Assembly (NCBI GenBank): GCA_002633005.1
Contig: NMRA01000242.1
Location: 124,001 to 188,000, forward strand
Origin: Phoronis australis
Taxonomy: Eukaryota; Animalia; Phoronida
Direction: 5' to 3'
Length of the DNA stretch: 64,000 bases
The position numbers were made by a program, and so were the translations under genes. The notes under the pieces are model-generated. The model saw only the letters and a list, made by a program, of their open reading frames with translations. It searched no databases and was not told the DNA's origin. The stretch's first letter is position 1; every line of letters begins with the position of its first letter. Of this stretch, positions 35,201 to 41,200 are shown piece by piece.

Positions 35201-38200
35201 AAAATCGGTACGAATTTACTAGAACGCATGTGCTACAAGTGTGCAGAAAATCGTTGACTTCCGGTTAGATGGCGGAAATATTGGACGTGGCGCATGCGCA
35301 CCCCGAAATATGGCTAAAAACGTTTTCTCCTGTAGAGGGCGCATTTGCAAACCAATCAATTTCAAACTGGTCAAGTGTTTGTTGAGTTTAATAAGCTTTT
35401 ATAAAAAATTATTGGACCGGAAGTCACTTTCAAGATGGCGGCTGTGGCGCATGATCACACGGTTTCAATCGCTCTGGTGTCGCATTTTTAACGGGAAGAG
35501 TAAATGACGTGAATTTTTGCATTTGGATTCCTTGAAGTATGGCCTTTCAAAAAGTCTGCGAGAGCGTATTTCTCAGACTTACCGTTTTCGAGTTATTTGA
35601 CTTTGAATTTCAAAAAAAAACGGCAAATTTTCAATTTTCTCGAAAATTTTTTGGATTTTTGCCAAACTACCACTTTAGATAGAATTTTGAACGGGCTTTC
35701 AGAAGATATTTTTCATTTTGCGCTACGACGTCTACTTTTTGAATTATTCGAGATTTTCGGATACAGTTGTTCCTTCAGTCACCTATGCAAGCACGCAGCT
35801 GGCTGGCTTTGTTTTGGTTATGCCTAGTTGACCCAGACTGACCCAGCCAGCACTGTCCTACTGTAAAGCATGGCTCGTCCGTCATGTTGCGCCATCTATT
35901 GTTCTTTATTGTAGTTGGTTGTATGCTCTCTATTTGATTTCTTCGCTAGTCACATGAATGTTATCGTGTTTGCCAAACTACCACTTTAGATAGAGTTTTG
36001 ACCGGGCTTTCAGAAGATATTTTCCATTTTGCGCAACGACGTCTACTTTTTGAATTATTCGAGATTTTCAGATAACGTTATTCCTTCGGTCACCTATGCA
36101 AGCATGCAGCTGGCTGGCTTTCAGTTCACTTTGCTTTGGTTATGCGTAGTTGACCAGACTGACCCAGCCAGCACTGTCCTACTGTAGACTGGACCGTCAA
36201 GTTGCGCCATCTATTGTACTTTATTGTAGTTGATTGTATGCTCTCTATTGGATTTCTTCGCTAGTCACACGAATGTTATCGTGTTATTCATAATTGCCGT
36301 CTTGATCGTCATGATTGTCGTTGTCTCCCTCATCGTCGTCTTTTCGATTAGTTCCGCCAAGTGTCGCTCCTCCGAGCGCTCTCGTATTAATCCTTTGAGC
36401 AGTTTTGTGATTAGAGAGATGTACAACAAAATATGGACTAAAATAATGAAACAGAGCCAGGAGATGGTGCAAAATTCTTCAAATCCACCCTAAAATGAGA
36501 AGGCATAGTCTTCTGCTTAATAGACACCTATCAAGTATATCCAACTTCATAAAAATACAGCAATACAGCAAGGAACTCCAAAAATACAGAGGCAAACATA
36601 AAAACAAAATTGCCACTAGGGGGCCACGGCAATAATCTGATAGCTTCAAAACTTGTCGTAATCTGTCGTCACCTTCAGAGGAACACATCTGAAAATAAGT
36701 TCTTGCAAAGGGTTCAGGAGATATAGCAGCAGACTTGATTGGATACACAGAGACGACCAGACAGAGATTACAGCAATATGTACCTACATAAGCATATGTA
36801 GGAACATAAAAAATTATGACACGTTCTAAAGTCTTCATTTGAGCACAACAATAAAATATGCAAGGTTTGCACTGAACAAATGAAGCAGCAGCCCCCTCTA
36901 TGGAAATGTTCAATCAACTACTGTCACTGACTGTAATAAATAACAAAAAGGTAATGCATCCAGAAGTTCAATTATCAGGAAATTTGATAACAAGCTTTTA
37001 TAGCTCCTGTTGCACTGATAAGGAAGTGGGACACCTTGTTAAGATAAAGTTCCAGTTAATACATTTATCATACATCACAACCTGATAATAAATAATGCCT
37101 AGCATACACACATCACATGGATACCATACAACATCGGTGGGTCAAACCCCGATAGGACGTCCTGTGATCGCAATAGAAAGGTGGGCGTCAATACCAGTAC
37201 CTCGAGCTGAGATAAAACTGTAGAGCCAGTAAATATGCGCTGACTCACACAATCTGTGTCTCATTGAACTAGTACCAGATGATATAAGATATCAAAGATG
37301 ATGAGCTAGTTCCAAACAACAGACGCATCACTTGCAGGCTTGTAATTATCCGCCAATCAAGGGATAATAAAGCACAAAAAGCGACAATGAGCGTTCTTCT
37401 TGACAGAATCAAAGTAGAACACATCATGTATGTAGTACTTACACTACACAATTTTAAAATGCAACAGTGCTCCCACACAAATTCTACAGCAACTCACAAT
37501 GCACAGAAGGCTAACCTCAAACTTGTGCATGACAACTATAAGCTCCAACACTGATAACTATAAGCTCCAACACTGTCTTTAGATGTGTGGACAACACATA
37601 CAGAAGTAAAACGCATATGTTCATGTCAATGACTTCCAAGAGTCCTATTTCAGAACACTTGACATGACAGGTAACAGCAAGAGTTGTATAGAGAACAAGA
37701 GTCGCTGGTAGAGTTCACTTACATTCTGTGGCTCTTTATTCAAACACAATTGCACAAAATCCTTAAACACCTTGCTATGGTTGCCGGCCAGCTGAGGCGG
37801 GTTATTTTTGGGAATGAGGAAGAGCACCCTCATGGGGTGCAGGCTGGAGTTGGGCGGTTCACCCTCCGCCAGCTCGATGGCCGTGATGCCTAGCGACCAA
37901 ATGTCGGCCTGTTGGAATAAAATAGGGGTCAAGGAATGAGTCACGCGGTGGATCAAACAGATATCCATCACTCACTCTGTGAACATGGCAACGTTTGCCG
38001 AGCGTGCGTGACATGCGTACCAAATCACACAAACAAACAGGTGAATTCCAAATACTCATCACTTGTAATGCTTCATTTCATGAGACTTTGCATGCAGTCA
38101 GAGGACTTTCACATTATAGTCACATGACTTCCATTTCAAGTCATGTGATATCAGACACACGCACGCTCACACGGCCACTGTTGACAGAGTGAGCAGACAG

Positions 38201-41200
38201 ATGGTCACTGGTGCTGCATGTCCCCACACTTACGTTATTGGGCTCCTTATTTAAACATATTTCAACAAATTCCTTAAAAGGCTTTGAAAACTTGGCGCCC
38301 TCTAGTGTCGGCGGCGGGTTCCTAGGGATGAGGAACAGCACCTTCATAGGGTTCTGGTCAGCATACGGTGGCTCACCCTTGGCTAGTTCTATGGCTGTTA
38401 TGCCTAAACTCCATATATCCGCCTAGAGATGAAAGGAACAAGGTAGTGGATTAGCTGACAACACCTGCTCTAGGGTGTGTATGAGTGTGTTATGCAGAAG
38501 GAAGGAAGCCATGCATTTCCTGGAGACTGAAACAGGTGAGAGTAATGCAGAGCTGTACAGGACACAAGCACAGGTGAGAGTGATGCAGAGCTGTACAGGA
38601 CAAAAGCACAGGTGAGTGTGAAGAGTAGAAGAGGACACAAGCACAAAGTAGGAACTGGACATTAATGATAGTAAGTCTCAGTGCACATAATCGGAAACTT
38701 TAGATTTTTCCTTTTCTAACATTGCAACAGTAAACCTGGGACATACATTTGGAAAGAGGCCTACACACCACTAATGTTTGGTGTATTGATGGCAATTAAG
38801 CTAAAAAAGTAAGATGGAATATTAAGTGGTATCTTTGAGGAACATGCTCTGTCTGCCTCTCACACAACTTAACTTCCTCTGCACATTTTGGGGAGTCACA
38901 CATACCATTAAAACTTTAATTGTAGCTCTAAAAGTAGGCCCGTGGCCTGCATTTGGAAAATGTTCTGGCTTAAAGCACACTGGGGGTACATCTAAGAAAG
39001 CCTCTTTGCAAAAATTCCCAAAAATGAAGACATGAACAAAAATGAAGAGAAGTAACTACTTAAATGTTGAAGTAAGAACAAGGAGTGACTCAGTGCAGTT
39101 CCAGTCAGACATAATTTTACCAAGTTAGACAACGTTAAGTCAATAAGCGATAAATGTCAAAAGAAATCACAATGTAAAGATTAAAAAGACATTTAGAGAA
39201 GAGCTAATGGAAAGAAGTGGCGACACCTGTTGATAGGGAATGACAAATATTGTGCACACAGCAATATAATTAGAAGCAAAATCAGAGAAGAAAGCCAAAA
39301 GGACATGACAAGACAAAGACAGGCAACAATGGTGATTCCTAGCACACCATAACCAAGAAGCAGTCCAAATGTTTTCACAAATAAAGTTCATAATTACAAA
39401 CAAATGAATGCACGAGAGAACGAGGCAAATAACCAGATTTCTACTGCGATTTCTTTAAAACTGTCAGATATGAATTCATTCTAAAACAGGAAATTCAAAG
39501 TAACTATTAAACCCAAATGAAAACTTTCAATTCACTGAAATCTGGGAAAACAAGGGCAATTAACTAAGAAATTTGTGAAAACATGTTTGCATTTCATGGC
39601 TGTTTTGAAAACCAGTTCCTGAAAACATCAACAGGTGGTGTTAGAGTCTCCTTCTACCTGTCAAACCTAAGAGAAGACTACACAGTTAGTAAAGCTGCAT
39701 TAGGAGCTTTCATTGTGCAATGCCCACTAATGCCCTCAAGTTGACATGGAGACAGTTAACTTTTAAAGCACAGGAGGCAGATAAAAGTGGTAGTGGTGAC
39801 ACAAGGCACAATTTTGATTTAGAAGCCAATTGGCAGTACACTCAGAGGCCTCAGCCAACTACAGATGTTTGCGACTCTCCTCAGAGGCCTCGCCCAACTA
39901 GATGCCTATGACTCCAGACTCCCCCTAGTGGTACAAAGGCCTCGCCCAACTACAAATGACTGTGACTAACCCCAGGGGCACACTAAGAAGTCTTGCCTAA
40001 CTACAGGTGTTTGCCACCCCCACAGGGCTAAACTTAGAGGCCTCTTCCAACTAGACACCTGCGACGCCCCCCTACAGGCTACAGAAGTCTCCAAATCCCT
40101 TCAGCTCAGTCACCACACTCTCCCCTCTATTACAATTTCCTCTTTTTTGTGCATTAAACTGGACTTCACAGAAATTTACACACATTTTTTATATGAAACT
40201 CAAGCCTTTCCCCAAGGCTTGTTAAACAAATGCCCTTACTCAAAGGTCATGGAACCGGTTCAAATGCCGCCTATGACATGTGCCATCAAACATGGTTGAC
40301 GTGTTGCTATGTCCATCTCGTGACTAGACAGGTTGGTCACGGCATGTGTATCTATACATGACATGAGTGGAGATACAATATTACTACATGACACTATGTG
40401 TGGAGATACAATATTACTACATGACACTATGTGTGGAGATACAATATTACTACATGACACTATGTGTGGAGATACAATATTACAACATGACACTATGTGT
40501 TACATTTGACACATCCTGCCTGTCACGGGGCAAAATTAGAGTTTTGCAGTAAAAGTAAACTGTCCCCTCATCACTTAAGCACATTAGTGGTGGATCCAGA
40601 AGGGAGGGCAGCTGACATTCAGTCATACAAATCTCCCAAGGAGGTTAGTGTGCAGTGAAGCAATTAATAATAGTGCAGGGCTCACAATCAAGGTATCACA
40701 TTACCAATACCAATATAATAAACAATATGAATGTCCTCATACTATAACATACTTATAACAATGACAACTGAGGTTAAAATCAAGTCTACTTATGCTTTTG
40801 CATTTGTAGGAATTGTACATTATTCACACAAACATCAACTGTGTGTGACTAATTAAGGCCTAGAGCAACAGACGAACCTTATGGTCTATGTATCACTTAA
40901 TTGAACTAAACATACAAAATTTAATAAAATAAGACGCATATCTAAAGAAACATTGAGAACCATTATGTAATGTAATTTAATAGAAAACTGTAGAAAGTTA
41001 ACATATTGAATAAAACAGGTAATGACCTTTGAGTCGTATGCTGACTGTTTGATGACCTCAGGAGCCATCCAGAATGGAGTGCCCACAAACGTCTGTCGTT
41101 TATTGGTTGTGTTGGTCAGTTGCCCCGCAACTCCAAAATCTGCAAGTTTGACTTCACCCGTTTCTGATAATAAGACATTGGCAGCTGCAAGACAAAGATA

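Follow-up and report, generated by a model that had tools for sequence, protein, structure and literature searches.

Mutually exclusive exons within the kinase domain of a GCK-III protein are known from Caenorhabditis elegans, where gck-1, a GCK-III orthologue (passages of PMC4576864), carries exons 4a and 4b, of 155 and 158 nucleotides (nt), whose alternative use is reported as verified by reverse-transcription polymerase chain reaction (passages of PMC4165533). Homologous either-or exons in the C-lobe of two other kinases, MAPK8 and MAPK14, are listed among the tandem duplicated exons in the supplement of PMC8373072. For the two-exon clusters of Dscam exon 17 and OGDH 4a/4b, parts of PMC7969005 point to an RNA structure within the intron that separates the exons and to a possible steric constraint, which sets in when donor and branch point are closer than about 50 nt; for Dscam exon 17, structure and steric hindrance are reported there in a citing sentence. 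Here we describe two tandem exons, A and B, in a GCK-III kinase gene of the phoronid Phoronis australis, on the reverse strand of a 64,000-nt stretch of DNA (positions 124,001 to 188,000 of contig NMRA01000242.1, assembly GCA_002633005.1; hereafter the window). The pair is a real, expressed switch between alternative exons, and it is a new case of a known splicing strategy, with no new mechanism.

Like 4a/4b, A and B are a homologous, mutually exclusive pair inside a GCK-III kinase domain. The nematode pair, however, is the DFG–APE exon, which in nematode protein records (several proteins) lies directly upstream of the A/B equivalent; its lengths are of the form 3n+2 and its regulation is partly dependent on nonsense-mediated decay (NMD), whereas A and B span alphaF to alphaH and measure 189 and 186 nt, both multiples of three. 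The two are separate events. A sequence-only reading of the window had taken mutually exclusive exons to be undescribed in GCK-III; the gck-1 case, in the cited passages of PMC4165533, contradicts this for the family, though it concerns the neighbouring exon. For an alphaF–alphaH pair in GCK-III, no description was found in the open-licence papers searched, though supplements with invertebrate cases may hold one; STK24, STK25 and STK26 gave 0 hits in the human tandem-duplicated-exon table of PMC8373072. The parallel that had been drawn with JNK and p38 holds: DIWS also marks the start of the MAPK8 exon, and the MAPK14 exon spans alphaG. Those exons, unlike the present ones, belong to CMGC kinases, encode 24–27 residues and are dated to Chordata and Vertebrata; A and B encode 62–63 residues of a lophotrochozoan STE20 kinase.

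The assignment of the window gene to GCK-III (STK24/25/26 type) is supported by sequence comparison. Exon A alone scores 96–97 bits against STK24/25, 90 against MST4 and 70–71 against MST1/2, and the window kinase is 78–83% identical to animal GCK-III. Its orthologue in Lingula anatina matches STK24, STK25 and MST4 in the PDB at 491–519 bits, as compared with 337 bits for MST1. Near the C-terminus, a partial exon in the window matches the PDCD10_N domain below the cut-off (E 0.0067; 16.5 bits vs 19.8), while the Lingula orthologue, which aligns to this stretch at 41%, exceeds it (28.6 bits). The human kinases STK24 (MST3), STK25 and STK26 (MST4) are the best PDB matches and have the same domain plan, but all keep the His that is replaced by Asn in A, and the idea that the pair substitutes for the three vertebrate paralogues found no support. 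The proposal that A is a GCK-II or Hippo-like exon is not supported by its bit scores, 70–71 for MST1/2 vs 90–97 for GCK-III. The PPYAD motif behind that proposal is frequent in non-animal GCK-III (YADLHPMR 57 and YADLHPMK 28 of 414 motif hits, a redundant and query-biased set), and YAD is, judging from these records, the usual protist and fungal GCK-III state.

Both exons are intact and in phase 0, each with an AG acceptor and a GTAAGT donor, in agreement with what had been read from the letters. We also reproduced the residue counts: A and B have 44 identical residues, with 18 aligned differences and one gap, and their first 14 residues are the same even though 11 of the 14 codons there differ synonymously. 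Codons agree at only 17 of these 44 shared residues, nucleotide identity is 123/186 (66%), and the Nei–Gojobori proportions of differences are 0.81 at synonymous sites (pS, saturated) and 0.21 at nonsynonymous ones (pN). The introns flanking A and B do not match each other above chance level, and the window contains no third copy of the exon. Differences between the two proteins cluster in a conserved block at positions 20–24 and in a second cluster at positions 34–44, reaching the alphaG–alphaH loop.

Further evidence of constraint came from a related organism (RNA set X1), whose exons are 92–96% identical to those of the window. Of 13 differences visible in A and B, 12 are silent and the thirteenth puts Asn in place of Ser22 in B; A and B are less diverged in X1 than four constitutive exons (14/372 vs 54/694, p 0.012). 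The substitution pattern shows both copies to be under purifying selection, so the old, selectively maintained duplication proposed earlier is upheld.

Either-or use in RNA

The four joints expected of either-or use were all present in two raw RNA runs (X3 and X4) that match the window exons nearly letter for letter: 41027->38422, 38234->33375, 41027->37908 and 37723->33375. The upstream donor and downstream acceptor predicted from the letters, 41027 and 33375, were thus confirmed. In X3, 13 junction reads led from the upstream exon into A and 9 from A to the downstream exon, against 4 and 5 for B; the corresponding counts in X4 were 13 and 8 for A, 6 and 3 for B. Overall, A accounts for 43 of the 61 junction reads (0.70, confidence interval 0.57–0.81) and B for 18 (about 30%). 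Both exons are therefore transcribed and used as alternatives, A being the commoner at about 70:30. The X1 data contain a separate contig for each exon (depth 48.5 for A and 29.2 for B, with flanks at 72.9–93.3), and three of the joints are exact there while one is off by 1 nt. X2 shows the A joints only; its contigs drop rare forms.

As to exclusivity, neither an A–B joint (38234->37908) nor a joint skipping both exons occurs among the best 15 of 49 joints, at shallow depth. The predicted mutually exclusive use thus stands for the four either-or joints, and the near-absence of the A–B joint holds among those 15. Reads out of B (8) do not outnumber the 10 that lead into it from the upstream exon, as would be expected if double inclusion were uncommon. 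Two points weigh on the other side: 34 of the 49 joints, and all joints with fewer than three reads, lie outside the set considered, leaving room for rare double inclusion, and no tissue or stage bias of A vs B, typical of such pairs though no requirement for them, was seen, the ratios being alike in X3 and X4.

It is hardly credible that the pair is an assembly artefact, a pseudo-exon or a cassette pair often co-included. Such a reading could appeal to another exon of the same gene, whose duplicate looks like a genuine assembly artefact, to one Lingula model that joins A and B, and to the fact that inclusion of both stays in frame. It is largely refuted by the RNA joints, and it also has to face silent sites at saturation, a nucleotide identity of 66% and the B exit reads (8 vs 10 upstream entry reads).

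The reading frame is open, with no stops, in all four combinations (A only, B only, both in, both out). NMD is therefore unable to enforce the exclusivity of A and B, and exclusion must be imposed at the splicing step. Plain steric exclusion is ruled out by length, the A–B intron of 325 nt being too long. For this intron, folding predicts a stem of about 37 bp (−104.9 kcal/mol; 1 of 100 shuffles was equally stable), the fold z of −2.8 is the strongest among 15 intron windows (the next is −2.16), and the core pairs of the stem hold probabilities of 0.66–1.0 in a 950-nt context. One low-depth contig of the X1 organism matches 37892–37985, including part of the 3' arm (37964–37985). By drawing the A donor near the B branch point, or by hiding signals, the predicted stem might help to block double inclusion, a possibility to which we give rather less than even odds. 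With the stem in place, the distance from donor to branch point would be 43, 55 or 67 nt, depending on which of three candidate branch points is used. The best-consensus candidate gives 67 nt, above the limit of about 50 nt, and only a weaker one gives 43, which tells against this mechanism. This distance and the predicted nature of the stem set the case apart from Dscam exon 17 and OGDH.

A docker–selector type of competing pairing was considered and rejected, the rival helix (38578-38594/37957-37973) having probability 0 and −22.5 vs −43 kcal/mol. Long-range RNA duplexes showed no outlier. Two TGCATG motifs flank A (38515 and 38096; p 0.09) and were given no weight. The donor that chooses between A and B, at 41026 (-) behind the DFG–APE exon, is a weak GTCATT. 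A repetitive intronic element at window positions ~34250-36800 has deep RNA coverage, mainly on the strand opposite to the reads of the kinase transcript.

Origin and age of the pair

The best match in a protein search with exon A was a Lingula anatina gene model (P0003) in which an A-type exon is followed in tandem by a B-type one. The Lingula GCK-III records (XP_013417845.1 with its isoforms; XP_013379253.1) share this A block, which is followed directly by a B-type exon; they are products of automatic annotation, with A only or with A and B joined, and the examined records bear no mutually-exclusive flag. At the main Lingula locus, 14 of 14 isoforms use the A type. Several nematode gck-1 models (P0050, P0059, P0037, P0075) likewise join 4a and 4b or bear a divergent 4a, the same annotation error as in P0003.

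Window A and Lingula A have YADQN in common at positions 20–24. Among the 414 motif hits, N precedes PM in 17, namely window A, 15 Lingula records and one Logan fragment (P0316), whereas H stands there in 397. The hallmark of A is the change from LH to QN, and QN is found nowhere else among the named records of that set. In the alignment of window and Lingula exons, window A agrees with Lingula B at no position; the cross identities are 51 for A–A, 49 for B–B, and 44 and 46 for A–B. When the alternative exon is left out, the window kinase is the sister of the Lingula kinase (support 95/89); the path between the two measures 0.43, close to the 0.49 between horseshoe crab and shrimp. The window kinase is equally identical (80–83%) to those of Lingula, Lineus, Nucella, Priapulus and Penaeus.

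Probably, on this comparison, one tandem duplication occurred in the common ancestor of Phoronis and Lingula, after which A fixed YADQN. A single old origin is likely because the same pair occurs in the same order, with YADQN in A, in sister but deeply diverged kinases. The switch would then probably be very old; the brachiopod fossil record reaches back more than 500 million years (passages of PMC12693507).

Some results fit this origin poorly. Lingula B occurs in only one gene model (P0003), on another scaffold; P0003 may be a second haplotype or a recent copy. An exon tree (62 columns, two rows dropped) leaves window A and Lingula A apart, grouping them in 2% of bootstrap trees. Topology tests do not reject an A clade (approximately unbiased test, p-AU 0.32), nor do they clearly reject a duplication specific to the window (p-AU 0.068). 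The ungrouped A exons are also what would be expected if the exon had been duplicated independently in the two lineages, with YADQN convergent. The 3' half of window A is unlike Lingula A, the neighbouring exon of the same gene family was doubled separately in nematodes, and convergent tandem exon duplication is described as common (passages of PMC9741552). We nevertheless regard independent duplications as improbable, given five adjacent shared derived residues, the restriction of QN among the named motif hits, the same A-then-B order in both animals, the failure of window A to side with Lingula B at any position and the sister relation of the two kinases (95/89).

Other A-type exons were sought in several ways. 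Protein searches recovered only Lingula and the Logan fragment P0316 (best 120 of 6857, 3161 and 721 hits), and a degenerate nucleotide pattern describing the A block had 0 matches in metagenome contigs. Isoforms of Priapulus, two cephalopod clusters, a chiton, two horseshoe crabs, Lineus, Penaeus and a mayfly carry one exon type each, a check that covered at least 15 of 19 Penaeus members and relied on annotation of a kind that misses B even at the main Lingula locus. Three annelid-like sequences (P0089, P0205, P0138) have Y or N at position 20, which may hint at variation there, and four genomic exon fragments (P0294, P0297, P0328, P0358) read QHPM, a state intermediate between those of A and B.

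The alphaG surface

The alternative exon covers alphaF through alphaG to alphaH. In MST2, two sets of alanine substitutions in this region (K218, D223, I224, H225, P226, M227 and R228; Y221, F231, M232, T235, N236, P237 and P238) are reported each to abolish kinase-domain dimerisation and autophosphorylation while folding and substrate phosphorylation are kept (passages of bioRxiv 2023.03.09.531926). By spacing, the 14 residues map to exon positions 17–37, and at 7 of these residues A is unlike B. Of seven A-specific residues common to Lingula, four fall in the MST2 set (p 0.04). Three further interface residues tested in MST4, M225, L228 and F229 (passages of PMC13232308), are the same in A and B, which would mean that the core is kept and the rim altered, and that the switch probably tunes the interface rather than abolishing it. 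The determinants of phosphosite choice in STE20 kinases, namely the beta3–alphaC loop, KxxN and DFG+1 (passages of PMC6445471), all fall outside the exon; tuned self-activation or partner docking is therefore likeliest, with an unchanged phosphosite motif. The sequence-only reading had assigned the region a substrate and partner docking role; of this, a part in the alphaG dimer and autoactivation surface is the better supported, and altered phosphosite specificity is not borne out. The AlphaFold model of the Lingula A isoform is uninformative here, with alphaG unbuilt and a confidence score (pLDDT) below 50 at residues 300–310.

Taken together, these comparisons make it likely that the switch tunes the alphaG surface used in dimerisation and trans-autophosphorylation, and for the combined explanation, A-or-B splicing plus alphaG tuning, we would put the probability at roughly 55%. 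The exchange of YADQN for NSxLH would alter the alphaF–alphaG loop and the first part of alphaG while leaving the hydrophobic core that they surround as it is, and it is slightly better than an even bet that the isoforms differ in how easily they self-activate, or in the partner kinase or regulator docked, with the same phosphosite motif. On the other side of the balance, the difference between the MST2 set (7/14) and the rest of the exon (11/48) is not significant (p 0.09), the enrichment tests were picked post hoc, and the three MST4 residues are unchanged.

This last point can also be used to argue that A and B are true alternatives whose exchange alters docking of substrates or regulators (e.g., STRIPAK/striatin or NDR-type substrates) and not self-activation. 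The second difference cluster extends into the alphaG–alphaH loop, and the JNK and p38 exons span the same region. The alternative exons of JNK and p38 have effects on substrates. AlphaG is also described as taking part in other, competing protein contacts (passages of PMC13232308). We consider an effect confined to docking possible but clearly the weaker proposal, as window A and Lingula A have a single conserved block in common, 20–24, four of whose positions lie in the MST2 sets, and the MST2 mutants lost autophosphorylation yet still phosphorylated a substrate (passages of bioRxiv 2023.03.09.531926).

Finally, A and B might be nearly equivalent in function and be kept by subfunctionalised expression or by splicing constraint. 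The A/B ratio was much alike in both raw-read runs, and conservation of the alternative exons extends to silent sites, pointing to splicing constraint. Such equivalence seems very unlikely: a His that 397 of 414 motif hits possess is missing from A in two deeply split lineages, where its loss has been kept, while B retained it. Tuning of the alphaG surface remains our preferred reading.

Surroundings of the pair and its meaning

The exons of the kinase gene and the elements of the A–B intron are collected in Table 1.

Table 1. Features of the kinase gene in the window
Feature	Window positions	Strand	Remarks
Exon with Gly-rich loop, VAIK and alphaC	45180..45410	-	
WIIME-HRD exon	44175..44340	-	second copy 43522-43687, 99.4% identical, likely assembly overlap
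Upstream exon, DFG to APE	41027..41184	-	158 nt; homologue of the nematode gck-1 exon duplicated as 4a/4b
Alternative exon A (alphaF to alphaH; YADQNPMK type)	38234..38422	-	189 nt, 63 codons
A–B intron	37909..38233	-	325 nt; predicted fold z = -2.8
Predicted stem, 5' arm	38158..38201	-	begins 33 nt past the A donor
Predicted 11-bp hairpin in the long-stem loop	38120..38148	-	
Predicted stem, 3' arm	37964..38010	-	ends 55 nt ahead of the B acceptor
Alternative exon B (NSSLHPMR type; near the usual bilaterian sequence)	37723..37908	-	186 nt, 62 codons
Downstream exon, RPTAK, end of kinase domain	33241..33375	-	acceptor from reads; donor from sequence only
C-terminal coding stretch, weak PDCD10_N (CCM3-binding dimer domain) match	17733..17933	-	boundaries approximate

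The WIIME-HRD exon is doubled by a 652-nt direct repeat (43201-43852 and 43854-44505; 99.4% identical, with a single N between the copies). Reads split across both copies, and a copy-to-copy joint was absent among the joints listed; the repeat is likely a scaffolding overlap and not a second exon pair. Also within the kinase gene, a 420-codon stop-free Ser/Pro-rich stretch (23995-25257, -) has no Pfam match. It may be a large alternative exon akin to those of the 900-1000-residue Lingula isoforms; a tblastn comparison with Lingula P0248 gave no match. An XRRA1-like leucine-rich-repeat gene (exons at ~4417-8705, +) lies tail to tail with the kinase gene, and its eight top relatives, chosen by score and length from the best 150 listed, are all lophotrochozoan and 36–46% identical. 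Tandem arrays occupy 47749-49390 (unit ~98 nt) and 61166-61693 (unit ~82 nt).

The pair is a second, independent tandem-exon switch in GCK-III, beside nematode gck-1. It may also be a character common to brachiopods and their relatives; automatic annotation overlooks the pair or joins its exons wrongly. As a natural, long-kept pair of alphaG-surface variants in one STE20 kinase, it offers a test of the role of alphaG in dimerisation and self-activation, a role currently being studied kinome-wide (passages of PMC13232308). In its widest form, which we offer as a doubtful extrapolation, this would be a Cambrian-age, lophophorate-wide switch, enforced by the intronic stem, between two GCK-III kinases that differ in the alphaG surface used for self-activation; as the full-length isoforms have their C-terminal dimer domain in common, the activation threshold would be set by A/B heterodimers. 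Together with gck-1 4a/4b, the activation loop and alphaG, as the two halves of the trans-autophosphorylation interface, would each have been made switchable independently in one gene family.

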